Origin: an uncultured Acidobacteriota bacterium
Lineage (GTDB): Bacteria; Acidobacteriota; UBA6911
DNA: 64,000 bases
Reading direction: 5' to 3'
Assembly: GCA_963809485.1 (NCBI GenBank)
Contig: CAWEJX010000020.1
Coordinates: 768,001-832,000, forward strand
Part shown: piece by piece, positions 5,477 through 61,474 of the stretch
How the letters are laid out: every line of letters starts with the position of its first letter
How positions within the stretch are numbered: position 1 is the stretch's first letter
The notes under the pieces: generated by a model
Databases searched by the model: none
Seen by the model: only the letters and a program-made list of their open reading frames with translations
Told to the model about the DNA's origin: nothing
Position numbers and translations under genes: made by a program

Positions 5477-5876
5477 AGTCAGGTGCCTCCGGCAATGCCG
5501 GAGGCTTGAAAGATTTGAGCCCCTCAAAGCGGTTGGAGGAGTTACGCCGGTCTTGAACGCTGACTTACGCGGGCAAAAGCCGATGAGGCGCTTCCGATCC
5601 CCGCAGGGGCCAGCGCTCCGCGCTGGACAGTTATCTGCGGCGGCACTGTGGCAAGCGCCGTGCGGCAAGGAGATGAAGGGTTTGAGAAACCGGGCGTTTG
5701 CCACAGTGCCGCCGCAGATAACTCCATCGGAAGCGCCTCATCGGCTTTTGCTCGCCGATCCTCGCCGAACAAATCGGTGATCAGCGCTTTTATCAGCGTT
5801 TCTCAGCGTTTCAAAATACGGAACTGTCAAACTCTTGGAGTCCCCCGGCAGAGCCGGGGGTTTACCAATGTAATTA
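5477..5876. mobile_element. ~400-bp non-autonomous IS200/IS605-like palindromic element, copy 1 (full length)
   Basis: AGTCAGG...CCTCCGGC-aat-GCCGGAGG hairpin, nested 26-bp and 31-bp inverted repeats, CCCCGGCAGAGCCGGGG hairpin, ...AATGTAATTA end; near-identical to the other copies. Confidence 0.85.
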
Positions 5877-6172
5877 CAATGGCAGTGCACGTTCATTTCA
5901 TCACTTTCTCCTTCCATCCAACGGATCCCAAAATCCCATTGGCGCCTCCAAAAACGGACCTGATTTGCGGCACCCGCTTGTCGCTGCAGCATATCTTCCG
6001 GGCCGGCTCCGGCGAAGAGCATCCCGGGGAAGAGGCATCTGTTAGATTTTACAGTACATTATTTCTTCCAATTTCCTTTACAATAAGTCAAACGACTTTT
6101 TCATTGCACCAGCGGTCGACGAATACGAGTGATGTGAGGAACACCGGCTGGGAAAAAAGGAGATACTTCGCT

Positions 6173-6643
6173 ATGAACCGGAAGCAATTCATGGAATATG
6201 TCGATCATTTCAACAACAAGAGGTTTGATAAGGTTGCCAGCTATTTCTGTCCGGATGTGACGCTCGCGTATCCCGACAACTTCATGGGTCCGCAGATCCC
6301 CGGCCGCACCGGAAACACCCTGCACGGCCCCAAGGAATTCATTGCCAACTACCTGGCCATCACCGCCAACATTCGTGAAGTCCTGAATGTCGGCGCCTTT
6401 CTTTCCAGGGGGAACCAGTTCTGCGTCGAACTGATCACCGAGTTCCACGTGTTGAAGACTCCCCCGTCCAGCGCCCCGGGAGCCCAATGGAAAGAAGGGG
6501 ACGTCATCGTCATGAATCAGATTGTGCTGTACGATCTGGACGAGAAAGGCAAGTTCAAACGGATCCGGATTTTTCACCATCGCTATCTTGACGCGAAGGA
6601 AGTGCTGCAGAAAAAGGCCGCTCACGCAAAGGTCCTGGCATAA
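6173..6643 (+). CDS. SnoaL/NTF2-like protein
   Basis: YVDHFNNKRFDKVASYFCPDVTL...VLYDLDEKGKFKRIRI; AAGGAG RBS before ATG 6173. Confidence 0.8.
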   Translation: MNRKQFMEYVDHFNNKRFDKVASYFCPDVTLAYPDNFMGPQIPGRTGNTLHGPKEFIANYLAITANIREVLNVGAFLSRGNQFCVELITEFHVLKTPPSSAPGAQWKEGDVIVMNQIVLYDLDEKGKFKRIRIFHHRYLDAKEVLQKKAAHAKVLA

Positions 6644-6661
6644 TTTGCGCTGGATAACCGG

Positions 6662-6706
6662 GGACAGGTGTTGAAATTTCAAAATTTGAAATTTCAACAC
6701 CTGTCC
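6662..6706. repeat. Perfect 22-bp-arm palindrome (REP-like or terminator-like)
   Basis: GGACAGGTGTTGAAATTTCAAA-A-TTTGAAATTTCAACACCTGTCC. Confidence 0.75.
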
Positions 6707-7285
6707 GGGGTTTCAGTCGCCAGGGATGTGCGTCAGGAACCGTGGGCCGTCCGGGTAGTAAAGCGCGGATGTTTTAGAGGTAGTTCAGCTCAAATTCCTC
6801 GGTTGAGAGCTCGAGAGGATTTTTTTTCGAAGGGGGACTCGACAAGCCCCCTGGGGACCAACGTCCCGTAGACGCAAATTCCGTATTCGCCGAGCCCCCC
6901 AGGGTGGAGGATTTTGAAGTGGCCATCGGGGCCAAAATGGCAAAGCCCCGACAGCATCAAGCTGATTAAAAAACTCTTTATCGGAATACCGGGGAATTTG
7001 TAGAAGGGTGCAAATGCCGGTTTTTTCGGAGCGGCGCGGACGCAAGTTTCCCGCGCACCCTTAGCGAGCATCGTAAATCCGGCGATGTGAATCCCGGGAA
7101 ATCGTCCGCAGAGGATGGGCGCGGTCTGTTGGTCATTTCCAGAGCGGGTATGTCCATTAACGCAAAATCCGGGTGAAGCTCTAGCCGCGGACAATGATTC
7201 CTATCAAACGATTGCATGTGCCTCTTGTTCGCCCGTTCGAAATTCTGCGGCTGCTCATTTTGCAGATTACTGCATGTATGGCGGG

Positions 7286-8236
7286 TCATGATCCGCGCAC
7301 GCTAAAGAAGGTGTCCAGTTCTTCGACGCCTTTCCGGACGGCGTTCGCACTTGCTTCTAACTGATCCGCTTCTTCTTTTTCAAGGTCTAACTCCACAATT
7401 CGTTCGATGCCGTTTTTGCCCAAAAGTGCCGGCACCCCTATAAACAGATCATGAATTCCATACTCGCCGCGCAGATAGCAGGCGCAAGGAGCCAGCGTTT
7501 TGCGGTCGGTGATGATAGCTTCGATCATTTCCGCCACCGAAGCCGCAGGAGCGTAATAAGCGGATCCGGTTTTGAGATGGCCGACGATCTCCGCACCGCC
7601 TTTGCGCGTTCGTTCAACCATCCGGTCGATGACCGACTTGTCCAGCATCTCTGTGATCGGAATTCCCGCAACCGTCGTGAAGCGCGGGAGGGGAACCATC
7701 TGGTCGCCGTGGCCCCCCAGACCCATCGCATGAACATCGGTGAGTGCACACCCCAGTTCCTGAGCAACAAAATAGCGGAAACGCGTGGAATCGAGTATTC
7801 CTGCCATTCCCATGACACGTTGTACGGCAAAACCGGTAGTGCGAAAGGCGACGTGACACATGATATCCAGCGGATTGGACACGACGATGACCGTCGAGTT
7901 CGGCGTGTATTTTGCGATATTCTGCGCGACCGATTTGACGATCCCGGCATTGACCTTCAGCAAGTCCATCCGGTCCATACCCGGTTTGCGCGGAAATCCT
8001 GCGGTGATGACCACAACATCGCTGTCCGCGATTTCGGAAAAGTTCCCCGTCCCCTTGATCGAAACGTCATAGCGTCGCATGGGACCGGCGTGCAGGAAAT
8101 CCAGGGCCTTGGCTTGAGTCACTCCTTCGGCGACATCCACCATGACGATATCCGCAATGACTTTTTCAGCAACGTAATAGGCGGCAGTCGCCCCAACATT
8201 GCCCGCCCCAACAATACTGACCTTCCTCCTAGGCAT
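7286..8236 (-). CDS. mdh: Malate dehydrogenase (LDH-like MDH)
   Basis: GAGNVG Rossmann motif, AGFPRKPGMDRMDLL, VSNPLD, LDSTR, LGGHGDQMV, GSAYYAPA. Confidence 0.95.
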   Translation of the reverse strand: MPRRKVSIVGAGNVGATAAYYVAEKVIADIVMVDVAEGVTQAKALDFLHAGPMRRYDVSIKGTGNFSEIADSDVVVITAGFPRKPGMDRMDLLKVNAGIVKSVAQNIAKYTPNSTVIVVSNPLDIMCHVAFRTTGFAVQRVMGMAGILDSTRFRYFVAQELGCALTDVHAMGLGGHGDQMVPLPRFTTVAGIPITEMLDKSVIDRMVERTRKGGAEIVGHLKTGSAYYAPAASVAEMIEAIITDRKTLAPCACYLRGEYGIHDLFIGVPALLGKNGIERIVELDLEKEEADQLEASANAVRKGVEELDTFFSVRGS

Positions 8237-9185
8237 GTTGTTCTCCTTCCGGTCCAGGCGGCGTAACATTTGCGCGCGCCAGCGAAATGCGAAGCTCCTC
8301 TGCCGCATCCAAAAAATCATTCAGTTCCTTGGAATTCATCCTGACGGAAATGATCGTCTCCGCGCCTCCTTTCCCGATTCGTGCCGGAACGCTGACCGCG
8401 ATGTTGTCCAGACCATATTCGCCCTGCAAGCGGATGGAGACCGGAAGGATCGATTTGGAGTCGCGCGCGATTGCTTCCACCAGCGCGGCCACGGCCGCAC
8501 TCGGAGCATAGTAGGATGTGGAGCTCTGAGCCATCTGAAGAATCGTGTCCCCCGCTCTGCGCACTTCCTCCAGGATTTCATCCAGTTTTTCCGACGGCAG
8601 AAGCTTATCCGCGGGGATTCCGGAGACCCTGATCGTGTCGCGGACCGCAACCATGCTGGGCCGGTGCGGCCCGAGGACCATGCCCGTAACCTCGCGAGAG
8701 GATACTCCGAGGTGGTTGCTGATGAGATATCGCAGCCTGGTAGAACTCAGCAGGCCGCCCACGCCCAGGACTCGCGCGCGATCAAATCCCAGAGTTTTTT
8801 GCGCCAGCAGCGTGATCATGTCCACAGGCTCGGCAACGTTGATGACTACCGCCTGGGGAGCCAGCCGCTTGATATCTCCGCAGACTTGAAGAATCAGCTG
8901 CGAGTTGTCTTTGTAAAGCTCGTCGCGGCTCTGGTTCGGGGCGCGCACACGCCCCGCGGCGATCACGATGATGTCGCTGCCGCGAATTCCTTCGATGCTG
9001 TTTTCACCCCTTATATCCGTGTCATAACGGCGGATAGGGCCGGCTTGCAGTATATCCAGGGCTTTCCCGACGGAGAGACCCTCTTTGATATCCACCAGAG
9101 TGACCGAGGCTGTGCGGTTTTCCGCGATAAAAAATGCGCTGTTCGCCCCGACGTTGCCGCTGCCGATAATCCCGACTCGCTTCAT
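8229..9185 (-). CDS. MDH paralog with altered active site
   Basis: GSGNVG motif and strong similarity to the downstream mdh, but NVAEP replaces VSNP, LLSSTR replaces LDSTR and LGPHRP replaces LGGHGD; 8-nt overlap with mdh. Confidence 0.88.
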   Translation of the reverse strand: MKRVGIIGSGNVGANSAFFIAENRTASVTLVDIKEGLSVGKALDILQAGPIRRYDTDIRGENSIEGIRGSDIIVIAAGRVRAPNQSRDELYKDNSQLILQVCGDIKRLAPQAVVINVAEPVDMITLLAQKTLGFDRARVLGVGGLLSSTRLRYLISNHLGVSSREVTGMVLGPHRPSMVAVRDTIRVSGIPADKLLPSEKLDEILEEVRRAGDTILQMAQSSTSYYAPSAAVAALVEAIARDSKSILPVSIRLQGEYGLDNIAVSVPARIGKGGAETIISVRMNSKELNDFLDAAEELRISLARANVTPPGPEGEQHA

Positions 9186-9603
9186 CTTTTGCCCTCCGCT
9201 GCTTAATGGAAGTTTAGTAAACAATAGAATCGCATACAAGGCAGCCACCGGGAGGACTTCTGATTCCCAATCGCGCGGCGGTTTCTTGAGGAATCCGGTA
9301 TTCATGGACCACGGGCCTGCACAAGGGAAGGGGAATTTTCCGAAGAAAATGCAGGTTCCAATTCCAAGGGTGATTATTCCGGCAAAGGAGAATCCCAATT
9401 TCGCGAACCGGTTGGCGACATCAGGGATATTCGCGCCTGCATTTCCTTTCTTTTGTGGGATTGTCTCCGCATCCGGGCGGTGAGAAATCTATTCCTGAAC
9501 AGCAATAATATGATTTTTAGCAATATGGATTCATCCGCATCACCAAAATTCGTAGCACATGTTATGGGAAGCCTGCATAATTTGAATAAGGAAAGGAGGA
9601 TTC

Positions 9604-11943
9604 ATGTACAGAAGAAACGAGGTCCTTGAATATCATGGCTCCGAGCCGAAAGGCAAGATCGAGATTTCGGCCGCCAAACCGCTTATTACTCCCAGAGACC
9701 TGAGTATGGCCTACTTTCCAGGTGTTGCTGAGATTTCCCACATTGTTGCGGAAAAGCCGGACGCTGTCTACGACTATTCCTCCAAGGAAAACCTGATTGC
9801 CGTTGTCACCAATGGCTCTCGCGTGATCGGCCTCGGGAATATCGGCGCACTCGCCGCCAAGGCAGTGATGGAAGGAAAATCTCTTTTGTTCAAACGCTTC
9901 GCGAATATAAACGCGATTGACCTCGAGGTAAATACTCAGGATCCGCAGGAATTTGTGAACGTTGTTGCCAATCTTGAGCCGACTTTCGGAGGCATCAGCC
10001 TGGAGGCGATCCGCTCGCCCGATTGTTTCTACATCGAGCAGGAACTGGCCAGGCGCATGTCGATACCGGTTTTCCATGATGACCAATATGGAACCGCGGT
10101 CATTGTCTGCGCAGCTTTGATCAATGCCCTCATTCTTCAAAAAAAGGCGATCGAGGACCTCAGAATCGTGATCTCCGGAGCCGGCGCAAGCGGCCTGGCA
10201 ACGGCAAGACTGCTGCTGGCTCTGGGCGCGAGGAGGGAAGAGATCTTGATGGCCGATTCAGCGGGAGTTCTGTATGAGGGCCGTCGCGAGAACATGAATC
10301 CGTACAAGGAGCAGTTCTCAGTCAAAACAGACCGCCGGACGCTCGCCGAGGCGCTGAAGGGAAGCGACTGCTTTATCGGATGCTCTGTGGGAGGGGTCGT
10401 CTCGAGAAACATGCTTATCGACATGCGTGAGAGACCCGTTATTTTTTCTCTGGCAGGGCCCGATCCCGAAATATCCTATTCCCTGGCAAAGGAAGTACGC
10501 CCCGACGCAATTGTCGGAACGCGGCACGCGGAATGGCCGAACGAATTTACCAATGTACTTTGCTCTCCGTACGTTCTTCGGGGCGCGCTGGACACGCGAT
10601 GCAAAGCCATCCACCCGGGGCTTTTGCTTGCCGCTGCCGCGGAACTCGCCGCAATCGCGCGCGAAGGAGGGCCGCCTGACGTTGTACACGGCGCCCTTCG
10701 GGAAAATTACCAGTTTGGGCCTGAATACATCATTCCAAAACCATTTGACACGAGGCTTGCAGAGCGGATTTCAGAGGCTGTGGCGAAAGCCGCTGTGGAA
10801 TCGCAAGTTGCGCGGGTTCGCCTGGATTTCCCGAAATACCGCACCCGATTAGGCAATTTCTTCGGCAAGTCCAACACGGTGATGCAGCAATTTATTACGC
10901 AGGCGCAGAAAAAAGTCATGCGCATTGCATTTCCGGAAGGAGAGACGCAAACGATCCTTCGTGCCTGCCAGGCAATCGTAGACAATGGGATCGCGCAGCC
11001 TGTGTTGCTCGGCTCGCCGCAGAAGATAAGGAATTTGATCAAACAGCACAATCTGGATCTTCTCGAAAAAGTGGAAATCATCGATCCGTCGGATCCGCCC
11101 AGCTTCGAAATCTACTGCCGGGAAATTTACGAGCTGAGAAAGCGTAAGGGGCTGACACTCCAGGATACGCGGGATTTTCTGAGGAATCTCAACTGCCTTG
11201 GGATGGCAATGCTCCGCCATGGCGACGTCGATGGCGTTATATCGGGCCAGACGACGCACTATCCCGAAACCATTCGCCCTGCACTCACTCTTATAGGGAT
11301 TCGGGAAGGCGTAAGGCTGGCGACGAGCATGTATATGGTCATCCTGAAAAACAAGGCGAAGTTTTTCGCGGACACAACTATCAACATCACTCCAGACGCT
11401 GAAGACATCGCTGAGATCGCGATCGTGACCGCGGACGCAGTTCGCAGATTGGGCGTCATCCCCAGAATCGCGCTTCTCAGCTTTTCAAATTTTGGATCCT
11501 CGAAGCATCCGCTTGCCGCAAGGGTGGCCAGGGCAGCCGATATCGTGAAGAAGCGCCGGCCGGATCTTGAAGCAGACGGCGAGATTCAGGCGGACGTGGC
11601 GCTAGATGCGGATCAGATCCGGGAACTTTATCCTTTTTGCCGGCTGACGCGCGAGGCGAATACGCTGATTTTCCCCGATCTCGGCTCAGCCAATATCGCC
11701 TACAAACTCATGGGGCGAATCGGTTCCGCTACCATTGTCGGCCCCATCCTGCTGGGCTTGCGGAAACCGGTCGGCGTTCTGCAACGATCGTGCTCCGTGG
11801 AATCCGTCGTGAACAATACCGCCGTCGTCTGCGTGAAAGCGCAGGGGCTGTTCGAACGGGAGGCGGAACCGGAAAAGGAATTTCACCTGACCGATTCCCC
11901 TGACCGAACCCCCGTGATCCGGAGTCCCGAGCCCGCGCTATGA
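9604..11943 (+). CDS. maeB: Malic enzyme-phosphotransacetylase fusion (MaeB-like), divergent
   Basis: AYFPGVA, VMEGKSLLFK, FHDDQYGT and GAGASG in the ME part; FPEGE, LSFSNFGS, DGEIQAD and FPDLGSANIAYK in the PTA part; AAGGAGG RBS. Confidence 0.9.
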   Translation: MYRRNEVLEYHGSEPKGKIEISAAKPLITPRDLSMAYFPGVAEISHIVAEKPDAVYDYSSKENLIAVVTNGSRVIGLGNIGALAAKAVMEGKSLLFKRFANINAIDLEVNTQDPQEFVNVVANLEPTFGGISLEAIRSPDCFYIEQELARRMSIPVFHDDQYGTAVIVCAALINALILQKKAIEDLRIVISGAGASGLATARLLLALGARREEILMADSAGVLYEGRRENMNPYKEQFSVKTDRRTLAEALKGSDCFIGCSVGGVVSRNMLIDMRERPVIFSLAGPDPEISYSLAKEVRPDAIVGTRHAEWPNEFTNVLCSPYVLRGALDTRCKAIHPGLLLAAAAELAAIAREGGPPDVVHGALRENYQFGPEYIIPKPFDTRLAERISEAVAKAAVESQVARVRLDFPKYRTRLGNFFGKSNTVMQQFITQAQKKVMRIAFPEGETQTILRACQAIVDNGIAQPVLLGSPQKIRNLIKQHNLDLLEKVEIIDPSDPPSFEIYCREIYELRKRKGLTLQDTRDFLRNLNCLGMAMLRHGDVDGVISGQTTHYPETIRPALTLIGIREGVRLATSMYMVILKNKAKFFADTTINITPDAEDIAEIAIVTADAVRRLGVIPRIALLSFSNFGSSKHPLAARVARAADIVKKRRPDLEADGEIQADVALDADQIRELYPFCRLTREANTLIFPDLGSANIAYKLMGRIGSATIVGPILLGLRKPVGVLQRSCSVESVVNNTAVVCVKAQGLFEREAEPEKEFHLTDSPDRTPVIRSPEPAL

Positions 11944-11977
11944 TGTCAAGGCCGGATTTTTGCCATATGAGGTACCT

Positions 11978-12997: not shown

Positions 12998-13089
12998 ACC
13001 TCTCAGATCTGATTGCGCGGAAGATTTTTGGGCATCCTGGGAGCCTGTCCGAGAAGAAAATATCATCCCGACATTGCCAACGGCTCGAG

Positions 13090-14385: not shown

Positions 14386-14553
14386 AGCTTATGGGTCGTT
14401 CAAGCGCGTTTTTTGCCTTTTGTCGTCCGGGCCTCTGATAAAGAGTGATATGTAAACTGAATAAAACTCCAGAAACTCAATTTGCATATCAGGCAAAAAT
14501 CATTTTATGCGTGAAAGAGTCGGGAAGGAAACAGAAATAGGAGATTCGCCTTA
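14386..14553. repeat. Island direct repeat, copy A
   Basis: Highly similar to 17816-18076 (GGTCGTTCAAGCGCGTTTTTTGCC...GTGATATGTAAACTGA...GCGTGAAAGAGTCGG...ACAGAAATAGG). Confidence 0.85.
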
Positions 14554-17815: not shown

Positions 17816-18076
17816 AGCTTATAGGTCGTTCAAGCGCGTTTTTTGCCTTTTGTCGTCCGAGGCTTTGATAAGGAAAAGGGATCCTTCAGAAGCCGCGCAA
17901 CAAGCGATAACGTTTTACTAACAAAATGCTGTTTGGGCGGTTTCTAAAAGATTTTCTTGAAAAAGTGATATGTAAACTGAAAAAAACTCCAGAAACTCAA
18001 TTTGCAAATCAGGCAAAAATCACTTTATGCGTGAAAGAGTCGGAAAGGAAACAGAAATAGGCCGGGCTTCGCCTTA
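17816..18076. repeat. Island direct repeat, copy B (contains about 90 bp extra internal sequence)
   Basis: Aligns to 14386-14553 on both sides of an insert at about 17872-17962. Confidence 0.85.
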
Positions 18077-21099: not shown

Positions 21100-21502
21100 A
21101 GTCAGGTACCTCCGGCAAAGCCGGAGGCTTGAAAGATTTGAACCGCTCAAAGCGGTTGGACTAGTTACGCCGGTCTTGAACGCTGACTTACGCGGGCAAA
21201 AGCCGATGAGGCGCTTCCGATCCCCGCAGGGGCCAGCGCTCCGCGCTGGACAGTTTTCTGCGGCGGCACTGTGGCAAGCGCCGTGAGGCAAGGAGATGAA
21301 GGGTATGAGAAACCGGGCGTTTGCCACAGTGCCGCCGCAGAAAACTTCATCGGAAGCGCCTCATCGGCTTTTGCTCGCCGACCTTCGCCGAACAAATCGG
21401 CGTTTGTCAGCGCTTTTATCAGCGTTTCTCAGCGTTTCAAAACACGGAGCTGTCAAACTCTTTGAGTCCCCCGGCAGAGCCGGGGATTTACTAATGTAAT
21501 TA
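21100..21502. mobile_element. ~400-bp IS200/IS605-like palindromic element, copy 2 (full length)
   Basis: Same termini and nested inverted repeats as copy 1. Confidence 0.85.
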
Positions 21503-34452: not shown

Positions 34453-34680
34453 AGTCAGGCACCTCCGGCAAAGCCCGAGGCTTGAAAGATTTGAACCGCT
34501 CAAAGCGATTGGAGGAGTTACGCCGGTCTTGAACGCTGACTTACGCGGGCAAAAGCCGATGAGGCGCTTCCGATCCCCGCAGGGGCCAGCGCTTTTATCA
34601 GCATTTCTCAGCGTTTCAAAATGCGGAGCTGTCAAACTCTTTGAGTCCCCCGGCAGAGCCGGGGTTTACCAATGTAATTA
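34453..34680. mobile_element. Palindromic element copy 3 (internal deletion between CAGCGCT microhomologies)
   Basis: Both ends retained; core removed; terminal TTA coincides with the MFS gene stop codon. Confidence 0.85.
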
Positions 34681-38437: not shown

Positions 38438-38829
38438 AGTCAGGTGCCTCGGGCAAAGCCGGAGGCTTGAAAGATTTGAACCGCTTCAAGCGGTTGGACT
38501 AGTTACGCCGGCTTTGAACGCTGACTTACGCGGGCAAAAGCCGATGAGGCGCTTCCGATCCCCGCAGGGGCCAGCGCTCCGCGCTGGACAGTTTTCTGCG
38601 GCGGCACTGTGGCAAGCGCCGTGCGGCAAGGAGATGAAGGGTATGAGAAACCGGGCGTTTGCCACAGTGCCGCCGCAGAAAACTCCATCGGAAGCGCCTC
38701 ATCGGCTTTTGCTCGCCGACCCCTCGCCGAACAAATCGGCGTTTGTCAGCGCTTTTATCAGCGTTTCTCAGCGTTTCAAAATACGGAACTGTCAAACTCT
38801 TTGAGTGCCCCGGCAAAACCGGGGTTTTG
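38438..38829. mobile_element. Palindromic element copy 4 (near full length, right tip diverged)
   Basis: Same nested inverted repeats; lacks the terminal AATGTAATTA. Confidence 0.85.
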
Positions 38830-38859
38830 CTTCAACAAAATTCAAAAGGATGGGCAAAG

Positions 38860-39783
38860 ATGGCAAAGACAAAATTCGGGCACTGGATAAAAACCATCCC
38901 TCCCTTCAAGGATTACGGACAAGGTAATTACAGGCAGGGCACGGAGATGGACAGCAAGTTTTTCGAAAACGATCTCAACGTAAGGCTGGGGACTTACTAT
39001 AACTCCGGAATTCTCCAGCCGTCTCAGACCCAGGTATGTGACTACAATCAAATGATGATATTTATGGGCACAGACACGGATGATCTTGGTTTGCTGGGCG
39101 GTCAGGTCGAATTATGTCTTGGCGAAGATAAGGAGAGGTTTGTCATTACGACCGCAACATCGGTTTCCATCCCGAAGGGATTGCCGCACATGCCGCTTAC
39201 GGTCGGCCCCATGGACCGCCGGTTCATCCAGATGACAGTCTCGATGACATCCAAAGTAAAGGCCAAACCAGCCCTTGAAGACAAGCCGATCGGTCCTTTG
39301 GCCGCGTGGAGGTTTTCAAAATACAGCAAAAATGTCGCGGAACTCGGATTCAAACGCAACGGTCCCTGGCATTACGGACCTAAAAATCCTGATACAAACG
39401 GTGGGTACATAACCGACATCGACGCTGCTGGATTTGAATACAATATGTCCTATGAAAGCATGAAAAAAGCGCCGTACCGGTTCACCCCCGAGCCCGACAA
39501 GCCGCATGTGCATCCCTATACGGAATTCCTGGTATTCCTGGGATGCGACTGCAACGACCTGAACGAATTCCCGGCTGAAGTTGAAATTTGCATGGGCGAG
39601 CAGATGGAAACCCATGTGATTACCAAGCCCACGGTGGCCATACAGCCTAAAGGGCATCCGCACTGCCCGGTCAGAGTGTTGAAGCAGAGCAAGCCCTGGA
39701 TCTTCATGGTGCTCCGGCCATGGGGCATGGGCGGGGACATCTATTCGGGAGGCGAAGCTACAGCAAGAGAGGGTAGACGGTAG
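38860..39783 (+). CDS. Tandem two-domain cupin-like protein
   Basis: Domain 1 FMGTDTDDLGLLGGQVE...IPKGLPHMP has no HxH; domain 2 PHVHPYTEFLVFLG...QPKGHPHCP. Confidence 0.85.
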   Translation: MAKTKFGHWIKTIPPFKDYGQGNYRQGTEMDSKFFENDLNVRLGTYYNSGILQPSQTQVCDYNQMMIFMGTDTDDLGLLGGQVELCLGEDKERFVITTATSVSIPKGLPHMPLTVGPMDRRFIQMTVSMTSKVKAKPALEDKPIGPLAAWRFSKYSKNVAELGFKRNGPWHYGPKNPDTNGGYITDIDAAGFEYNMSYESMKKAPYRFTPEPDKPHVHPYTEFLVFLGCDCNDLNEFPAEVEICMGEQMETHVITKPTVAIQPKGHPHCPVRVLKQSKPWIFMVLRPWGMGGDIYSGGEATAREGRR

Positions 39784-42495: not shown

Positions 42496-42675
42496 ACCGC
42501 TCAAAGCGGTTGGAGGAGTTACGCTGGTCCTGAACGCTGACTTACGCGGGCAAAAGCCGACCCTCGCCGAACAAATCGGCGTTTGTCAGCGCTTTTGTCA
42601 GCGTATCTCAGCGTTTCAAAATACGGAGCTGTCAAACTCTATGAGTCCCCCGGCAAAGCCATGGATTTGCCAATG
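42496..42675. mobile_element. Palindromic element copy 5 (left hairpin and core deleted)
   Basis: ACCGCTCAAAGCGGTT...GCAAAAGCCGA joined to CCCTCGCCGAAC at a GCCGA microhomology. Confidence 0.8.
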
Positions 42676-42768
42676 AAAAGCAGGCAGCCGCTTCATGAAA
42701 TGGCATGGGCAGGCTGCATCCCTGTATTATGGGCAATTCAAGCTGGCGGGCTTGCGGCCACAGGGTTT

Positions 42769-44900: not shown

Positions 44901-45140
44901 GGTACCTGCGTCCGGCGAAGCAGGGGCCTTGAGTGTGTGGCGCCCAAAGCTGTGGGATGAGTTCCTTAAGCTTCAACCGCTGACACATGCTGGCAAAAGT
45001 CGATAGGCCCCTTCCGCTTGAAGCATCGGAAGCGCCTTATCGACTCCTGTACGCTGACCTACACCATAATGCTCAACGTTCATCAGCGTCTTTATCAGCG
45101 TATGTCAGCATTGCCTGATTCTGGAGCGGCAAAACCCATT
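44901..45140. mobile_element. Highly diverged copy 8 of the palindromic element
   Basis: GGTACCT...CAAAGCTGTGGGATGAGTT...CGCTGAC...GCAAAAGTCGATA...ATCGGAAGCGCCTTATCGACT...TTTATCAGCGTATGTCAGC is collinear with the consensus; boundaries approximate. Confidence 0.65.
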
Positions 45141-45166
45141 GCTCCACACAAGAAAATCTCGAATTT

Positions 45167-51432: not shown

Positions 51433-51763
51433 CTGAATTATCTTCCGCTCAGTTGGAAGGGCTTCCTTCCAGTTTGCCTACTATCCGGTTGATCCCTGTC
51501 CCCATAAACAAACCCATACCACTCTTTCATCGAATCGTTAGATGCAATCCAATGTTAATGGTATCACTAAAATTTGTCTTTGGCGGGTGTTCAAGGATAC
51601 AAATTTTTGGAGGACGCTCAAATTGCGCAATCCGCTTCCTCAATGACCTGCACAGGATCGGCTGCCAGATCAAGAATCCTAAGCCCTGCATTTTACCATC
51701 GCGGATTCATGTCGTCCAGAAACAAAATGCCTTTGAGTCACTGAAAGCTCAGGGCTTGTGGAT

Positions 51764-51855
51764 TTGGGATTCCGGATTCGAGATCTGCAATCGAGGATCG
51801 GAGGTTCGCGATTCGGGATTCGAGGTCAAATCCGAATCCTGAATCGCGAGCCTCG
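51764..51855. repeat. Heptamer (GATTCGR-like) tandem array with inverted arm
   Basis: GGATTCCGGATTCGAGATC...GATTCGGGATTCGAG...CCGAATCCTGAATCGCGAG. Confidence 0.6.
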
Positions 51856-52061
51856 AGTCAGGCTTGAAAGATTGGAACCGCTCAAAGCGGTTGGAGGAGT
51901 TATGCTGGTCTTGAACGCTGACTTACGCGGGCAAAAGCCGATGAGGCGCTTCCGATCCCCGCCGAACAAATCGTTTGTCAGCGTATCTCAGCGTTTCAAA
52001 ATACGAAGCTGTCAAACTCTATGAGTCCCCCGGCAGAGCCGAGAGTTTACCAATAGAATTA
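51856..52061. mobile_element. Palindromic element copy 6 (left hairpin and core deleted)
   Basis: AGTCAGG joined to CTTGAAAG; CCGATCCCCG joined to CCGAACAAAT; ends ...AATAGAATTA. Confidence 0.8.
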
Positions 52062-52068
52062 AATCGTT

Positions 52069-54561: not shown

Positions 54562-54899
54562 TGTATATTCTCCTGAATGTTCAACGGGACGCGAACGTCA
54601 CAGCATGTATCGTAATACCAAACATAAATGAAGGGGGGGATTATACCTCAGGTCCCGCCTGGAAATTGCGACGATTTATTGCATTTTTCCAATAATCTGC
54701 CTGCTCTCAGTTTGCACTGCGCCAGCCTGATAGATATCTTCTCAGGGACTTCGTCAGTTTTTGCACCCTGCCTTTGCCATTGTTATCAGATTTCATCAGC
54801 ATCTTTTTCAGTGCAGATCTGCTTTAGTTTGTCCCAGGGCGGTCAAAATGGGCCAGTCTCCCGCCGAAGCCGGAGATTGCCCATGCATTCCCGATGCCT

Positions 54900-55436
54900 T
54901 TATGAAAAGGCCAGGCGGCAAACAATGATGGCGGTTATAAGACTGACGATATCGGCAACCAGCCCCGAAATGACAGCGTGGCGGGCCTTTTTTATGCCCA
55001 CGGCCCCAAAATATACTGCAAGAACATAAAAAGTGGTCTCGGTGCTGCCATATGCGGAAGCAGCCAGGCGCCCGATGAAAGAGTCGGGGCCGTGAACCTT
55101 GATGAGTTCTGTCACGATTCCCATGGACCCGCTTCCCGACAATGGACGCATGATGGCAAGCGGCAGGATCTCAGCCGGGAACCCGACGCGGCGCAACACG
55201 GGATCCAGCCACTGGGAGAGCATATCGATCGCCCCGGCGCCTCGCAGCATCCCGACTGCCACAAGAATCGCAACCAAGTAGGGAATGATGCGAATCGCCA
55301 TCTGGAATCCGCCCTTGGCTCCTTCCACGAAACTCTCATAGACCTTTACTTTCCTAAAGGCGCCGTAAATCGGGACACCCACCAAAAACAATGGGATTGC
55401 CCAAACCGACAGTGTGCCGAGAATGTGCTGGATCAT
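54900..55436 (-). CDS. spmB: SpmB-like membrane protein
   Basis: VYESFVEGAKGG, RPLSGSG, GSTETTFYVLAVYFG. Confidence 0.93.
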   Translation of the reverse strand: MIQHILGTLSVWAIPLFLVGVPIYGAFRKVKVYESFVEGAKGGFQMAIRIIPYLVAILVAVGMLRGAGAIDMLSQWLDPVLRRVGFPAEILPLAIMRPLSGSGSMGIVTELIKVHGPDSFIGRLAASAYGSTETTFYVLAVYFGAVGIKKARHAVISGLVADIVSLITAIIVCRLAFS

Positions 55437-56047
55437 GACGATTTCCTTGAAAATCCGCGGTCGGCGGAAAAAATTGGCAGTTTCTCCAGAATTTTTACGG
55501 CGGTCACACCTAAGACCAGTGCACTAAAGCTCGCTGCCAGTGTGGTTCCAATGATGGCAGTCGGGTCCTTCGAGCCGGCGGACGCCATGATGCTGATCAT
55601 TGTGGCCGGTATCAGTTGAAGCCCGGCCGTATTGATGGTTAGAAACGTGCACATGGCATTGGTGGCGACTCCAGGCCGGCTATTCAGAGTTTCGAGATCC
55701 TCCATTGCCTTCAAACCGAGAGGGGTGGCGGCGTTGCTCAAACCCAGCATGTTGGCAGCAATGTTCATCGTCATGCTTCCCATAGCCGGGTGGCCTGCCG
55801 GGACATCGGGAAATAGCCGCCTCAAAATCGGCGCGATAGCTTTTGCAAGCAGCGACATCAACCCGGAATCCTCTGCTATTTTCACAATTCCCAGCCACAG
55901 CGCCATCACGCCTACTAGCCCGATTGCGACGGCCACACTGGCGCCTGCGGACTCAATCGCCGATTTTGTGACATTTTCGATTTTGCCGTTGATTCCTCCC
56001 AGCACTACGGCAAGAATAATCATGCCAAGCCAAATATAGTTGAGCAT
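55433..56047 (-). CDS. spmA: SpmA-like membrane protein
   Basis: MLNYIW, ANMLGLSNAATPLGLKAM, INTAGLQLIP. Confidence 0.93.
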   Translation of the reverse strand: MLNYIWLGMIILAVVLGGINGKIENVTKSAIESAGASVAVAIGLVGVMALWLGIVKIAEDSGLMSLLAKAIAPILRRLFPDVPAGHPAMGSMTMNIAANMLGLSNAATPLGLKAMEDLETLNSRPGVATNAMCTFLTINTAGLQLIPATMISIMASAGSKDPTAIIGTTLAASFSALVLGVTAVKILEKLPIFSADRGFSRKSS

Positions 56048-56107
56048 AATCCGGTCTCCATTGCTTTAGGGATTCAGGACTCTACGGCACGTATCTTAGC
56101 ACCTGAT

Positions 56108-57031
56108 ATGAATATTCCGACCATCCAACCGCCAAGATTAAAAACAGGAGACACCATCGCCATAGTGGCGCCCGCGAGTACCATCCATCAAAGGGATGGA
56201 TTTGAACGCGGCATACTTGCCCTGGAGGGAATGGGCTTCCGCGTGCGTTTTGGTGACCGTATATTCCAATCGCTCCGCTATCTTGCGGGCGATGATGTTT
56301 CCAGGGCGGAAGAGCTCATGAAAGCCTTTGAAGATCCCGCCATACAGGGAATCGTCGCGCTTCGTGGAGGCTACGGATGCTCCCGCCTGATCCAGCACCT
56401 CATGGAAAGACGATTGCGCCATAATCCCAAAGTGTTCATGGGCTTCAGCGATCTGACCACCTTGCACCTTTTTTTCCGGCGGCGCTTTGGCTGGATCACC
56501 ATCCACGGGCCAATGGCTGCTACCATCGGAAATATTGCCGCGGATCAGGAAAGCCATTTGTTTTCGCTGTGGACAGATCCCGGCTACTGTCCAAAGCTAA
56601 GTTTCCAACAGCTTGAATGCTGGTCTCCGGGAACTGCCGAGGGAAGCCTGGCCGGAGGGTGCCTATCGATTGTGGCGGCAAGCATCGGAACGCCCTACGA
56701 AATCAAGACAGAGGGAAAGATATTGTTTCTGGAGGACCAGGGTGAACCTCCCTTCCGGCTTGACCGCATGATTACCCACCTTTGCCTTGCAGGCAAACTT
56801 CAGTCGGCCGCAGGACTGCTTCTGGGTAGTTTCGCGGATTGCGAGCCCGATCAGGGCGGTTACACCGCCCTGGAAACGCTAAGGGATATTTTGCGCGGCC
56901 TCGACATACCGATTCTGGCCAATTTCCCGGGCGGACACGGCCCGGACAATTGGGCGATCCCGCTGGGCGCGAGAGTTCGCATCGATGCCGATGCACGATT
57001 CATTGAATTTCTCGACCCGGCTGTCTGTTGA
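56108..57031 (+). CDS. ldcA: LD-carboxypeptidase (peptidase S66)
   Basis: RGGYG, GFSDLT (Ser), LED (Glu), GH (His). Confidence 0.93.
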   Translation: MNIPTIQPPRLKTGDTIAIVAPASTIHQRDGFERGILALEGMGFRVRFGDRIFQSLRYLAGDDVSRAEELMKAFEDPAIQGIVALRGGYGCSRLIQHLMERRLRHNPKVFMGFSDLTTLHLFFRRRFGWITIHGPMAATIGNIAADQESHLFSLWTDPGYCPKLSFQQLECWSPGTAEGSLAGGCLSIVAASIGTPYEIKTEGKILFLEDQGEPPFRLDRMITHLCLAGKLQSAAGLLLGSFADCEPDQGGYTALETLRDILRGLDIPILANFPGGHGPDNWAIPLGARVRIDADARFIEFLDPAVC

Positions 57032-57339
57032 CGGCCGAATGTCGAAGAACAGCTTCCCCTGCCCCCTGATCCCGGATCTGCCCAACGATGCGATTTCTTC
57101 AGAAAAGTCGGCGGATTACCGATGCATACGGAGAGGATTCCTATGGGTTCCCATGAAGTGTAGGAGTCTTCGCGAATTGGCTCAAGTTTCGGGCGACATC
57201 TGCCGGCCGATTCGCAGATAATTTGAACAACGGGCTTTACAGCGAAGGTGAAAGTCTGATACATTTCTGTGCTTGGATCTCCCCCCAGCTTCATCCGAGC
57301 ATTTGGTCCGCGGCCCTTTATGCGGATTGAGAACGATTT

Positions 57340-58047
57340 ATGAACCTGCACGGGTCGATAACTGAGCTTCAGGACAGGATATCTAAGCTGTATCTTAAGC
57401 ATGAACAGCAGTTTAGCGAGAATAGCCTAATCCGCGATCTCTGGAGCGCAATGGCAAAGGATGTCGCCCAGCAGACCAGTAGCCTGGATGCGTTGCCGGT
57501 TCCTTTCTGGAATGAGCTGAAAAAAGGCCAGGACGGGTTATTCGAAGCCATTCAGGCTGCACGACAATCTCAAATTATTGAAAACAAAGAGGATTTATCG
57601 CTCCGGGGGTGTTTTGCGAAGACGCTATCGATTGAGGAGCCCACAATCCTGAAAGTTTATGTCCCAATTATCCGCAAACTCAGGGAAAACTGGACAGACC
57701 ATGCGCTGGATTTTTACATCATGGTCAAAGCCCATTTAGCCAGGATAGTGCGCATAACGGCATCCTATTCCGGGGATCCGCTTCTGATGCAACGGTCCAA
57801 TGTGTTGCTGACAAACTTCGAAAGAGAAGTTCAGGAGCCTCATATCGCGATTCTTCCTTCCATAAACCACATCCGTGCAGCCAAGCCTGCTGCGCCTGCG
57901 AAAACAAGCCAAAAAACAAAGGCCAGACACGCCGCCAAAGCGCCTAAAAAGGCTCATTCGCCTATTAAACACGCCAAAATCCGCGCGGGCCGGTCAAAAT
58001 CAATCGCCGCCAAGGTGAGCCTCCGCCGCCGGCGTGCCCGCCGCTGA
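57340..58047 (+). CDS. Hypothetical helical protein with Lys/Ala/Arg-rich C-terminal tail
   Basis: Clean ORF; tail AAKPAAPAKTSQKTKARHAAKAPKKA...RRRRARR. Confidence 0.75.
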   Translation: MNLHGSITELQDRISKLYLKHEQQFSENSLIRDLWSAMAKDVAQQTSSLDALPVPFWNELKKGQDGLFEAIQAARQSQIIENKEDLSLRGCFAKTLSIEEPTILKVYVPIIRKLRENWTDHALDFYIMVKAHLARIVRITASYSGDPLLMQRSNVLLTNFEREVQEPHIAILPSINHIRAAKPAAPAKTSQKTKARHAAKAPKKAHSPIKHAKIRAGRSKSIAAKVSLRRRRARR

Positions 58048-58254
58048 TTTCCGGTCCGTATTTCAGCAAAATCCCTGCCGAAGCATGATTGACCATAATA
58101 GTTTCCACTGACTGCAGATTTTACGTCGCGGATTACAGGTTTCGAGCTTTGATGCACCCAGCATTGAGAGTGCGTATCCTGACCTTGAGCACGGGGGTGA
58201 GAATTCTTTGAGCAATAGGCACTAAAGATGAATCATGGTTTTCCGCGTCGCAGG

Positions 58255-58283
58255 TTGATTTTTTGTATGTCCGTCCACATACT
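58255..58283 (+). promoter_or_regulatory. Candidate sigma70 promoter for the ClpX-like gene
   Basis: TTGATT-N17-CATACT. Confidence 0.4.
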
Positions 58284-58356
58284 TTAAATATAGGACTAAA
58301 AATAGGACAGCCAGGGACTGGAGAATGAGGACCCGGGCGGTTTGGGGAGGTTTATA

Positions 58357-59922
58357 GTGCAAATAGGCTCTGGATCCAAATGGCCGAATCCGGATGAGTT
58401 ACGGAAGGATATGGAAGAATTCTTTTCAAAAAAATATGGCAATAGCGTCAAACTGGGAGTCTTGGGTGCGGAACCGGATCAGGCCCGCACGGCCGACGAA
58501 GGCACTGAGACCAACAATGCCCCCCTGGATATTCATTTCGATTATCTTCCCCGGGACATCAAAAAATATCTCGACCGCTTTGTCGTAAAACAGGACGCCG
58601 CCAAAAAAGTGCTAGCCACAACAATCTGCGACCACTATAACCATATAAAGCGCTGCTCGGTCAAAGGCCCCTGCAAGGAATATTCCAAGCAAAACATCAT
58701 AATGCTGGGCCCGACAGGAGTGGGCAAAACCTATCTTGTGCGGACCATTGCAGATCTGATCGGTGTCCCGTTTGTGAAAGCCGACGCGACAAAGTTCTCC
58801 GAAACCGGCTATGTCGGCGGAGACGTTGAGGATCTGGTTCGCGAGCTGGTTCACAAAGCAGACGGCAACATTCGCCTTGCAGAATACGGCATTATTTATC
58901 TGGATGAGATCGACAAGATCGCCACACCCGCCAATATCCTGGGAAGAGATGTCAGCGGAGGGGGGGTTCAACGCGGGCTCCTGAAGCTCATGGAAGAAAC
59001 AGAAGTAAGCCTCCGCACACCCTTCGATCTGACTTCGCAGCTTCAGGCCGCAATGGAATTTCAATCCAAAGGAAAAGTCGCGCGTTCGGTAATAAATACG
59101 CGGCATATCCTGTTCATCGTCAGCGGGGCGTTCAACGGGCTCGCGGAAATCATCCGCAAACGCGTGGGGGCAAAGTCGATAGGATTTAATTCACGCGGCC
59201 GATCTGCACCCAAAGATGAGGATTATTTTGAGCTCTCCAAGAGCAATGACTTCATCGAATACGGCTTCGAGTCCGAATTCGTGGGCCGCCTGCCCGTGGT
59301 CGTCAGCTGCAAGGAATTGAGTGTCGACGACCTGTTCCAGATCCTCAAGAATTCCGAGGGATCGATCATGAATCAGTATGTCAACGCCTTCGATTCCTAC
59401 GGCATTGAGATGATCCCGACGGATCCGGGACTCTACCGGATCGCCCAGAAGGCCTACGAAGACCATACGGGCGCTCGAAGCCTTGTGGGCGTCTGCGAGC
59501 GCACCTTCCGGGAATACAAATACAACCTTCCGCACTCATCCGTAAAACATCTCGAACTGACAGCCAGAATGGTCGACCAACCCGACGACGTGCTGGGAGA
59601 GATTCTGGAATCTGCAAAAGCCGACCAACTGGTTGAAATGGACCTTGCGTTCGACCGGATCGCGGATGAATGGTCCAAACGAAACGGGATCCAGATCCGT
59701 CTCCACCCCGAGGCCGCGCGGCTGCTAAGCCAAAAGGCCCTTGAAAGCGGCGACAAGCTGGAAGATGTGTTCGCGGAAATTCTGAAAGATTACGAGCATG
59801 GGCTAAACCTGATACGCAGGACACAAGGCGTCCAGCAGTTTGAGATTACGCCGGAGGTAGTCCGGGATCCCAGATCTACTCTCGATCAGTGGATCCGGAC
59901 ATACTACGTCAATCGCAATTAG
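58357..59922 (+). CDS. ClpX-like AAA+ ATPase lacking the N-terminal zinc-binding domain
   Basis: GPTGVGKT, DATKFSETGYVGGDVE, YLDEIDKI, RDVSGGGVQ, IGF loop, GRLP, TGARSL; GGAGG RBS with GTG start. Confidence 0.9.
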   Translation: MQIGSGSKWPNPDELRKDMEEFFSKKYGNSVKLGVLGAEPDQARTADEGTETNNAPLDIHFDYLPRDIKKYLDRFVVKQDAAKKVLATTICDHYNHIKRCSVKGPCKEYSKQNIIMLGPTGVGKTYLVRTIADLIGVPFVKADATKFSETGYVGGDVEDLVRELVHKADGNIRLAEYGIIYLDEIDKIATPANILGRDVSGGGVQRGLLKLMEETEVSLRTPFDLTSQLQAAMEFQSKGKVARSVINTRHILFIVSGAFNGLAEIIRKRVGAKSIGFNSRGRSAPKDEDYFELSKSNDFIEYGFESEFVGRLPVVVSCKELSVDDLFQILKNSEGSIMNQYVNAFDSYGIEMIPTDPGLYRIAQKAYEDHTGARSLVGVCERTFREYKYNLPHSSVKHLELTARMVDQPDDVLGEILESAKADQLVEMDLAFDRIADEWSKRNGIQIRLHPEAARLLSQKALESGDKLEDVFAEILKDYEHGLNLIRRTQGVQQFEITPEVVRDPRSTLDQWIRTYYVNRN

Positions 59923-60056
59923 GGATTAGGGATTAGGGATTAGGACCAATTCATCACTTTTGATTAGGCCGCCAAAGGCGAGTCAAGAGAATCTGATTTT
60001 CCAGTCAGTGACAACTATCAAGTTATTCTAATCCCTAATCACTAATCCCTAATCAC
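59920..60056. repeat. Inverted pair of (TTAGGGA)n / (TAATCMC)n heptamer arrays between convergent genes
   Basis: TAGGGATTAGGGATTAGGGATTAGG ... CTAATCCCTAATCACTAATCCCTAATCAC. Confidence 0.8.
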
Positions 60057-61007
60057 TGCTAAACGGCCCTGGTAGGCGTTTCGCTCCTGTAGACGCTGCA
60101 CGATGAGGCGGCGTATTTCCGCTTTGCTTTTCCCCCAGACCGGCGCGATCAACTGCTCCTCGGGAGCAAATCCAAAAAGCCGCTCGATAAAAATGTCCGG
60201 GCTCAAGCGCTCGAGAAAGTCGACAACCAGTTCCACGTATTCCGCCAATCCCGGAAGCGGGAATGGACGGACCCGGTATTCATCCGCCATAGCGCTGCCA
60301 CGCACGACATGAAGATGGTGCAGCTTTAAAAAATTCAGCCCCCTATCCGATAAAACCGAAGCCGTTTCCAGCATCTCTGCGCGGCTTTCCCACGGAAATC
60401 CCAATATGACATGCGCACACAGCCAGATGCCTCGGTTGCGGCTGCGATTCATCGCATCCAGCCAGCACTGGAAATCGTGCCCCCGGTTGATGCGCTGCAG
60501 CGTCCTGTCGTGCATCGATTCCAGCCCATACTCGAGCGTTACAAAATAGTCCCGCGCGAGCCTTTCCAGCCAGGCCAGCTTGCCTTCGTCGACGCAATCC
60601 GGCCTGGTTCCCAGCGACAGGCCCACGACATCCGGATGAGAAATGGCCGCTTCGTAGAGAGGAATAAGAGATTCAAGAGGAGCGTGTGTATTTGTGAATG
60701 GCTGGAAATAGACGACGAATTTCGCCGCACCGTACCGGTTCTTGAGATAGCGGATTCCTTCGGCAACCTGCTCGGAAACCGGTTTGAAGCTGCTGGCTGT
60801 TTTCGGGCGGAATGAATCGTTATTGCAATAGGTGCATCCTCCCACCGCCAGCGTGCCGTCGCGATTCGGGCAGGAAAATCCCCCGTCGACGCTGACTTTG
60901 AACACGCGGCAACCGAACTTCTCTTTCAGGAAGCCGCCGTATGCGTTATACAGGTGATTTTCGACTTGAGACTGGGGACTCGAGATTCGAGATCGGGAAT
61001 TCGACAT
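60042..61007 (-). CDS. Radical SAM protein, TIGR01212/YhcC family
   Basis: DGGFSCPNRDG...GCTYC, YFQPFTNT, GTRPDC, KLHHLH. Confidence 0.93.
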   Translation of the reverse strand: MSNSRSRISSPQSQVENHLYNAYGGFLKEKFGCRVFKVSVDGGFSCPNRDGTLAVGGCTYCNNDSFRPKTASSFKPVSEQVAEGIRYLKNRYGAAKFVVYFQPFTNTHAPLESLIPLYEAAISHPDVVGLSLGTRPDCVDEGKLAWLERLARDYFVTLEYGLESMHDRTLQRINRGHDFQCWLDAMNRSRNRGIWLCAHVILGFPWESRAEMLETASVLSDRGLNFLKLHHLHVVRGSAMADEYRVRPFPLPGLAEYVELVVDFLERLSPDIFIERLFGFAPEEQLIAPVWGKSKAEIRRLIVQRLQERNAYQGRLAVIRD

Positions 61008-61071
61008 CGCAGACAAAATATAGCAATTCCGGGATTGAGATCATAGCCACGACCTGCAATTTCGGCTCTCA

Positions 61072-61474
61072 AGTCAGGGACCTCCGGTAAAGCCGGAGGC
61101 TTGAAAGATTTGAACCGCTCAAAGCGGTTGGACTAGTTACGCCGGTCTTGAACGCTGACTTACGCGGGCAAAAGCCGATGAGGCGCTTCCGATCCCCGCA
61201 GGGGCCAGCGCTCCGCGCTGAACAGTTTTCTGCGGCGGCACTGTGGCAAGCGCCGTGCGGCAAGGAGATGAAGGGTATGAGAAACCGGGCGTTTGCCACA
61301 GTGCCGCCGCAGAAAACTCCATCGGAAGCGCCTCATCGGCTTTTGCTCACCGACCCTCGCCGAACAAATCGGCGTTTGTCAGCGCTTTTATCAGCGTTTC
61401 TCAGCGTTTCAAAATACGGAGCTGTCAAACTCTTTGAGTCCCCCGGCAGAGCCGGGGGTTTACCAATGTAATTA
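61072..61474. mobile_element. Palindromic element copy 7 (full length)
   Basis: Inverted repeats 61168-61193/61321-61346 and 61224-61254/61288-61318; both terminal hairpins present. Confidence 0.85.

Follow-up and report, generated by a model that had tools for sequence, protein, structure and literature searches.

Introduction

The insertion sequences (IS) IS608 and ISDra2, models of the IS200/IS605 group, insert with their left end 3' of a defined tetra- or pentanucleotide, and their active strand is found on the template for lagging-strand synthesis (Lavatine et al., 2016, PMC5027513). Palindrome-associated transposable elements (PATEs), described in Haloquadratum walsbyi, are too short to code (Dyall-Smith et al., 2011, PMC3119063), and the PATE-like elements of Geobacillus stearothermophilus are gene-less IS200/IS605 derivatives, mobilized in trans, whose structured non-coding cargo is a guide RNA for a resident TnpB or IscB (Meers et al., preprint, PMC10055086). 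Abundant intergenic hairpin repeats combined with a Y1 HUH enzyme that acts on single-stranded DNA (ssDNA) are also characteristic of repetitive extragenic palindromes (REPs) and REP doublets forming hairpins (REPINs) with their REP-associated tyrosine transposase (RAYT) (Quentin et al., 2018, PMC6006769). We describe a structured, non-coding repeat present in eight copies in a stretch of 64,000 nt (the window), namely C20:768001-832000 of G000, an Acidobacteriota assembly of 6.04 Mb in 21 contigs with a completeness of 95.7%.

The window element shares with the H. walsbyi PATEs the lack of a transposase gene, of terminal inverted repeats, and of target duplication. Other shared features are similar palindromes near both termini, set farther from the 5' terminus (12 nt) than from the 3' terminus (9 nt), a target of 4-5 nt adjoining the 5' end, 'homogeneous' high-copy families of >90% identity, short derivatives produced by repeat-mediated core deletion, and resident IS200-type transposase genes that are pseudogenes (PMC3119063). 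At 200-400 nt and without a transposase gene, it shows every sequence-level feature by which that paper recognizes PATEs, as well as those of IS200/IS605 ends (PMC5027513). It differs from them in its bacterial host (Acidobacteriota), in a parent that is a tnpA-only IS200-type element instead of an IS1341/TnpB-bearing one, in a cargo of ~280 nt forming one nested, compensatorily maintained hairpin, in its very strong replication-strand bias, and in the 345 loci of a single family. As in IS608 and ISDra2, subterminal hairpins lie on the top strand and insertion occurs 3' of the target without duplication (TTAC in IS608, T(A/G)ATT here), whereas neither tnpA nor tnpB is found inside the element and the target sequence is another one (PMC5027513). 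Similarly to the G. stearothermophilus elements, it is a gene-less IS200/IS605 derivative with structured non-coding cargo that would be mobilized in trans; in contrast to them, its hosts show no TnpB domain and its parent IS is tnpA-only (PMC10055086). Compared with REPs, which measure 20-40 nt, often form inverted doublets, and depend on one stationary RAYT gene, the units are 200-400 nt long, with distinct ends that match a mobile IS (PMC6006769).

Taken together, these repeats are very probably PATEs, derived from an IS200-type (tnpA-only) member of the IS200/IS605 group and devoid of a transposase gene. The family is real, very abundant, and strongly polarized, yet of a known kind of bacterial mobile DNA. 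A literature search on Acidobacteria, IS200, and miniature inverted-repeat elements, which did not extend to ISfinder, yielded a paper on REPs but no description of this family. Its recognition explains 1.4% of the genome and hundreds of intergenic hairpins otherwise prone to annotation as small RNAs, terminators, or extensions of open reading frames (ORFs), and it provides a high-copy natural data set for single-strand transposition in Acidobacteriota, with the target T(A/G)ATT, both ends, and a candidate cognate TnpA in a relative. The genomes compared below comprise G006, a sister species; G007 and G002, from the genus of the window; G133, from another genus of the same family; and G127, from another genus.

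Element ends, target sequence, and empty sites

On the active (top) strand, T, which is the minus strand of the window, the T(A/G)ATT flank is followed by ACATTGGTAAAC, the left-end hairpin CCCCGGC-TCT-GCCGGGG, GACTCAAAGAGTTTGACA..., and the cargo, after which come the hairpin AACCGC-TTTGA-GCGGTT, the right-end hairpin CCTCCGGC-TTT-GCCGGAGG, TACCTGACT, and the other flank. The left-end and right-end hairpins are alike and both lie on the minus strand, and terminal inverted repeats are absent, the termini ACATTGG... and ...CCTGACT not being inverted repeats of each other. The original prediction, made from the sequence of the window, described the complement of the active strand. On the active strand the layout resembles that of IS608, TAATT is the target adjoining the left end, and the right end is formed by AGTCAGG (CCTGACT). 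We count TAATT as target and not as part of the element, with junctions that can be shifted by one base. Among 186 complete copies in G000, the pentamer at the left end is TAATT in 133, TGATT in 22, CAATT in 10, and CGATT in 2 (167/186 together), and the bases outward of it are random.

Empty sites were sought in ~396 kb of G006, whose genes are ~90% identical to those of G000, and both flanks could be placed there for 8 of the 186 complete copies. Five of these sites are empty, and the other three are filled or carry other sequence. At all five empty sites the joined G000 flanks equal the G006 length, and the insertion lies just after a T(A/G)ATT-like pentamer with no duplication, which upholds the predicted absence of a target-site duplication. 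The same result, again without duplication, was obtained in a sixth case, a copy located within another repeat family, by comparison with nine uninterrupted copies of that repeat. The G006 site orthologous to window copy 2 (the reference copy, 21100..21497) carries 385 nt of unrelated sequence, and copy 2 therefore yields no empty site.

An autonomous insertion sequence with matching ends

A 29-nt left-end pattern, allowing at most 3 mismatches, was searched in 137 genomes of the class. It matched 198 times in G000, 35 times in G006, 8 times in G130, 3 times in G133, twice each in G127 and G132, and once each in G007, G002, G003, G119, G129, G135, and G136, with no match in the other 124 genomes. 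The three G133 matches belong to three identical 629-nt copies of an IS200-type element (loci L077, L088, and L092) with an intact 143-aa TnpA, which matches Pfam Y1_Tnp (PF01797) with E = 1.7e-37 and 128.7 bits. Their left flanks are TAATT, TAATT, and TGATT; their right end contains both right-end hairpins and terminates in CACTGACT, beyond which the flanks differ. The terminal right-end hairpin of the window element, followed by TCACTGACT, also closes the G133 IS, and near-identity between the two extends over ~55 nt at the left end and ~60 nt at the right end, including three hairpins and the terminal CTGACT. An identical left-end hairpin with its flanks (GGTAAAC...GACTCA.AGAGTTTGACA) precedes tnpA in G133, G007, and G002. 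In G007 the element ends bracket a Y1 transposase gene on contig C580, and another such gene is present on G002:C286; both genes are damaged, one by a TGA stop and the other by loss of its 5' part.

Since the ends of the G133 IS are those of the window element, the latter is an IS200-type element in which tnpA has been replaced by other sequence; unlike the 629-nt IS, which was not found in G000, it has a hairpin cargo where the intact 143-aa Y1 TnpA sits. The expectation that the lineage would hold a Y1 transposase with matching ends is thus borne out by the three intact G133 copies and the degenerate ones in G007 and G002. No transposase had been noticed in the copies themselves, in agreement with zero Y1 transposase matches in the window. 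The proposed search for tnpA or tnpB genes with the same ends gave a divided answer, with tnpA found in relatives, no intact cognate tnpA in G000, and no TnpB domain: PF07282 and PF01385 are absent from G000, and PF07282 is absent from G006, G007, G002, G127, and G133 (IscB-specific domains lay outside this search).

The 5' untranslated region (UTR) of tnpA in the parent IS at L077 (locus positions 907-1535, minus strand) contains AACCGCTCAAAG, which is exactly complementary to a segment of the right-end hairpin AACCGCTTTGAGCGGTT. In the same UTR, a stem GAGTCTCC...GGAGACTC would sequester the AAGGAG ribosome-binding site (RBS). Judged from the sequence, these features may regulate translation or pair both ends.

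Orientation of the copies relative to replication

Counted in the orientation of the original prediction, the copies are distributed 81:4 on contig C20, 0:25 on C6, and 22:1 on C1. On C7 the bias flips at ~450 kb, where the only dnaA lies (C7:454563) and the weak GC skew switches sign. Of the 34 loci on C7, 30 have a top strand that heads outward from dnaA (17 vs 2 to its left and 13 vs 2 to its right), and across the genome the top strand is the G-rich one in 263 of the 345 loci, with the replichores outside C7 inferred from the weak GC skew alone. Long ORFs are divided ~50:50 between the strands (e.g., 413:391 on C20), and the polarity of the element therefore follows replication, not transcription. 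Since strand T points with the fork and the strand originally read points against it, T falls on the template for lagging-strand synthesis. The orientation bias seen in the eight parallel copies is replication-linked, flipping at dnaA in a genome with balanced gene orientation. A polarity of ~90% in a genome without gene strand bias makes the copies usable as replichore markers for a fragmented assembly.

Abundance, age, and short forms

A blastn search with copy 2 against G000 produced 908 high-scoring segment pairs, which merged into 345 loci covering 84,926 bp, or 1.41% of 6.04 Mb. The suggestion of a major genome-wide family therefore holds, while the density, ~1 locus per 17.5 kb, is about half of the ~1 copy per 8 kb extrapolated from the window. 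Locus lengths are at least 350 nt in 104 cases and 200-250 nt in 110. Open frames of at least 200 codons are untouched by 256 of the 345 loci, yet such frames cover 78% of the genome, in accordance with the intergenic placement seen in the window. When 86 full-length copies are aligned, the ends are sharp and most columns exceed 90% agreement with the consensus, and the flanks of the 74 scorable copies among them show neither a conserved motif nor a repeat.

The median pairwise identity of long copies is 94.1%. Short forms are as numerous as long ones (103 vs 78, n = 181), and with an identity over the ends of 90.0% vs 92.2% the two classes are about equally old. The short forms stem from differing internal deletions between short direct repeats; 41 of them retain the right arm of the P2 stem alone and 40 retain neither arm. 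G127 also holds a ~120-nt form consisting only of the left end, the P1 stem, and the right end. Because short forms without the nested core match long forms in number, the cargo is dispensable for spread. Some insertions, e.g., loci L024, L037, and L038, are common to G000 and G006, and others are confined to one species, which means that copies were inserted both earlier and later than the separation of the two species. A copy divergence of ~6% suggests an old burst, and in G000 the family is most likely its fossil.

Beyond the 345 loci, G000 contains a further 57 matches to the hairpin core CCGGCT.TGCCGG. Many of them follow another left end (CTAATCCAATGGGAGATCC + hairpin + ...GTTTGACAAATAC), e.g., at C7:432097, C8:375655, and C10:70514, and others resemble right ends (AAAGCC + hairpin + GATACTTAC). 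Given these other ends, G000 seems to hold sister PATE families that have the TnpA-type hairpin and a TAAT-like target in common.

Proposed mechanism and observations that weigh against it

The original prediction of a TnpA-mobilized, non-autonomous IS200/IS605-type element, whose gene was exchanged for a structured cargo, is backed by the ends of the G133 IS, the empty sites, and the polarity. The transposition steps proposed below are inferred from the IS608/ISDra2 model. What was observed here are the ends, the target, the lack of duplication, a polarity linked to replication, and, in relatives, a cognate autonomous IS. By analogy, a dimer of the Y1 HUH TnpA, supplied in trans, would bind the end hairpins and cut after the left T(A/G)ATT flank and after the right CTGACT. 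This would free a single-stranded circle, with the donor being resealed, and the circle would be pasted 3' of another T(A/G)ATT in ssDNA at a fork, without duplication. The ~280-nt non-coding cargo in the place of tnpA folds into one long nested hairpin that sets the left and right ends side by side in ssDNA. Repeat-mediated internal deletions gave rise to the short (~200-240 nt) subfamilies, which multiplied as well.

Several observations weigh against this assignment or against particular parts of it. The last base of the right end varies, with CCTGACT in 123, CCTGACA in 23, CCTGACC in 8, and CCTGACG in 4 of the 186 complete copies, and the cleavage positions are ambiguous by one base because T stands at both junctions. 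Two sites occupied in G006 and empty in G000 (L025 and L035) are not clean, having extra unaligned bases on both sides. No copy has a neighbor at least 99% identical over the ends, and both consensus hairpins are exact in only 43 of 181 copies. In G000 itself, none of the four Y1_Tnp matches is an intact cognate tnpA, and the exact hairpin motif does not occur within 2.5 kb of any Y1 gene. The match nearest to the G133 TnpA (C6:298547, 52% identity) is interrupted by a TAG stop at about codon 24; the left end of this pseudogene is related but its hairpin stem is another one, a right end could not be recognized, and the G006 orthologue lacks that stop. The other three matches are a RAYT-like gene (C15:225627), a truncated gene, and a weak match in a 293-codon open frame, and no family locus lies within 3 kb of any of the four. 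As the assembly is 95.7% complete, a cognate tnpA copy could be unassembled.

The nested-hairpin cargo and the possibility of an RNA gene

The layout originally read on the plus strand (AGTCAGG, two hairpins, P1, a 26-bp P2, a ~31-bp P3 with a 33-nt loop, small hairpins, a CCCCGGCAGAGCCGGGG hairpin, and AATGTAATTA) is legible in the sequence and is reproduced by a single-strand DNA fold. The T strand of the ~400-nt form folds with -140.7 kcal/mol, compared with a shuffle mean of -70.5 (z = -14.3), and none of 100 shuffles was as stable. In this fold, T positions ~58-335 form one nested stem (P1, the 26-bp P2, and the ~31-bp P3 with its 33-nt loop), which leaves the left-end and right-end hairpins adjacent. 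Variability per 20-nt bin is 0.6-2.7% in the stems, the lowest values in the element, and 4-10% at the ends, and double, pair-preserving changes were found in 16 cells within the stems. A long copy in G127 is 83% identical over 392 nt; its P2 and P3 differ at three pairs, all three changes being compensatory, and its loop has diverged. An exact search for the P3 arm among 185,579 species, with one genome each, returned only this G127 copy and three in the G006 equivalent, from a collection that may exclude the records of G000 itself.

A coding reading of the cargo was considered and rejected. A plus-strand frame is open over ~131 codons in most long copies, and the P3 loop contains an apparent RBS and ATG. 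Substitutions per codon position in the long open frame are 2.14, 2.37, and 2.10, without codon periodicity; stop-creating changes show a modest deficit (16 observed vs 34 expected); a 107-aa ORF has no Pfam match; and the sequence is largely palindromic. Moreover, the RBS/ATG loop is inverted in 21 of 77 long copies. Active switching by loop flipping was likewise rejected, since the 21 flipped copies are mostly one separate subfamily with diagnostic changes elsewhere, which makes a few old flipping events likelier.

Selection may maintain the nested core as a structural module, either of the single-stranded intermediate of transposition or of a transcript, a proposal that we consider tentative and rather unlikely. 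If it were true, the core would zip ~280 nt into one stem, leaving the TnpA hairpins only a few dozen bases apart, and it might stall lagging-strand synthesis; either effect would favor capture by a trans-acting TnpA. Selection on the core would account for the slowest-evolving stems, the compensatory changes across genera, and ~100 long-form copies in one species. The one point of wider interest is the occurrence of a long, compensatorily maintained palindromic cargo between IS200 ends in hosts without TnpB.

The stem conservation and the 3/3 compensatory differences of the G127 copy could also be expected if the element were primarily a structured-RNA gene (guide-like, antisense, or regulatory) riding on IS200 ends, with selection keeping the cargo and not the ends. 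Further points in favor of such a gene are contigs of two metatranscriptome runs that span the element and the report of PATEs elsewhere with omega RNAs (PMC10055086). We consider it very unlikely. At gathering thresholds Rfam identified only tRNA in the whole window, and in permissive mode copy 2 matched just two microRNA-precursor models, hairpin shapes far below threshold, so that the comparison with Rfam called for in the original prediction yielded no family for the element. A scan for sigma-70-like promoters in and around copy 2 found none, and the one terminator-like hairpin there is no more than shuffles give. The short forms lacking P2 and P3 equal the long forms in number and age, and paired changes could also result when one arm of a long palindrome is corrected against the other. 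A PATE bearing an omega RNA was specifically considered and set aside, given the lack of a TnpB domain in G000 and five other carriers (with IscB-specific domains outside the search) and of an Rfam family.

The environmental sequence data bear on the same issue. In wetland and sediment samples, contigs of two DNA and two metatranscriptome runs span the element, next to many different flanks and in several deletion forms, and in one public run the ends are ~ten times deeper than the core. For a 1.6-kb stretch, each public run contained at most 31% of the sampled words, essentially those of the repeat itself; the left flank was hardly covered, and the right flank was covered thinly, in two DNA runs only. 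The family is thus widespread. The metatranscriptome contigs are no proof of transcription because contigs of RNA libraries can come from contaminating DNA, and they give neither the strand nor the ends of a transcript.

Comparison with REP/RAYT systems and MITEs

G000 contains a 153-aa Y1_Tnp gene (region C15:225227-226370; gene C15:225627-225971) with tandem REP-like hairpin units on both sides (GGCCGCGTAGCGGCC..., GCCCGGCCTTTCAAGGCCGGG..., and CCCGTCGCGTGAGCGACGG), which looks like a RAYT within its own REP cluster (REPtron). Units similar to these hairpins also adjoin an IS200-type gene on G006:C43.

The presence of this RAYT-like gene with hairpin repeats on its flanks raises the alternative that the family is a REP/REPIN-like system, kept and spread by a domesticated RAYT instead of an IS200 transposase. 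Hairpins are substrates of RAYTs too, which belong to the Y1 HUH enzymes (PMC6006769), and the family resembles REPs in being very abundant and intergenic. The repeats around the C15 gene differ from the family in sequence, however, and a distance of 40 kb around that gene is free of all 345 loci. At both ends the element matches a mobile IS that bears tnpA and occurs as three identical copies in G133, and each copy is a single unit whose left end differs from its right end, in contrast to inverted doublets of 20-40 nt REPs. A RAYT-driven origin is therefore hardly plausible, and derivation from the IS200-type parent is preferred.

A classical miniature inverted-repeat transposable element (MITE), moved as double-stranded DNA by a DDE transposase, would likewise be short, non-coding, abundant, intergenic, and rich in secondary structure, but it can practically be dismissed in view of the lack of terminal inverted repeats, the lack of duplication at 5/5 empty sites, a one-strand, replication-linked polarity not expected of double-strand cut-and-paste, and ends identical to those of an IS200-type element.

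Copies in the window and adjacent repeats

Repeat finding retrieved all eight copies of the original prediction, and all lie on one strand, the minus strand of the window; four are full-length (~400 nt), two short, one truncated, and one decayed. The reference of the repeat family (D1) is copy 2 at 21100..21497, 398 nt without the target, which reads 5'-ACATTAGTAAAT...CCTGACT-3' on the minus strand. Its target pentanucleotide TAATT (21498..21502) is flanking DNA beside the left end, outside the element, with a boundary ambiguous by 1 nt. According to the fold, the left-end subterminal hairpin, the presumed TnpA binding site, occupies 21469..21485, ~12 nt from the left terminus, and the right-end subterminal hairpin occupies 21109..21127, 9 nt from the right terminus ...TACCTGACT. 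The second right-end hairpin (21141..21157) derives from sequence that lies 3' of tnpA in the parent IS. The cargo, a single nested hairpin with P1 outermost, extends over 21165..21445, with the P2 arms at ~21196-21221 and ~21349-21374, the P3 arms at ~21252-21282 and ~21316-21346 around the loop at ~21283-21315, and two small hairpins beside P3.

Repeat finding and genome blastn delimit a full-length copy with a TAATT target at 5477..5876, and sequence and genome blastn place another at 61072..61474. The remaining full-length copy, at 38438..~38829, has by sequence inspection a decayed or missing left terminus beyond the hairpin. Of the two short forms, that at 34453..34680 (228 nt with its target) was produced by an internal deletion between GCGCTG direct repeats, and that at 51856..52061 (206 nt including the TAATT target) is additionally missing the terminal hairpin of the right end; for both, G006 has an empty orthologous site. 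In the truncated short copy at 42496..42678, the terminal right-end hairpin is absent and the left-end hairpin is mutated. At ~44901-45160 lies an old, decayed relative belonging to repeat family D4, with 73% identity over the 89 nt that still align and a P2-like stem with paired changes.

Mechanically called ORFs begin within element copies at window positions 5648-6643, 38659-39783, and 61148-61471, because one frame of the element stays open until a TAA in AATGTAATTA that overlaps the TAATT pentamer. Gene callers may consequently add false N-terminal extensions to neighboring genes or call false small ORFs at the copies.

Runs of GATTCGAGAT/GGATTCGGGATTCGAGG-like units adjoin copies 7 and 8 (window 51760-51850 and 60980-61050), and one element copy is inserted in a multi-copy repeat of ~130 nt (...GAACCGCAGAATGTCGAATA.AGAATGATGAATTTCGAAG...), with the host repeat at G000:C20:916000-916540. 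Such intergenic repeats seem to be favored landing sites of the element. Two further repeats are unrelated to it: a ~310-nt family with >30 copies in G000 at 86-93% identity (e.g., C21:120008-120323 and C9:29253-29563), which was seen next to the element in locus L036, and a 102-nt direct repeat in two copies of 95% identity, 3.5 kb apart, at window positions 14440-14541 and 17960-18061.

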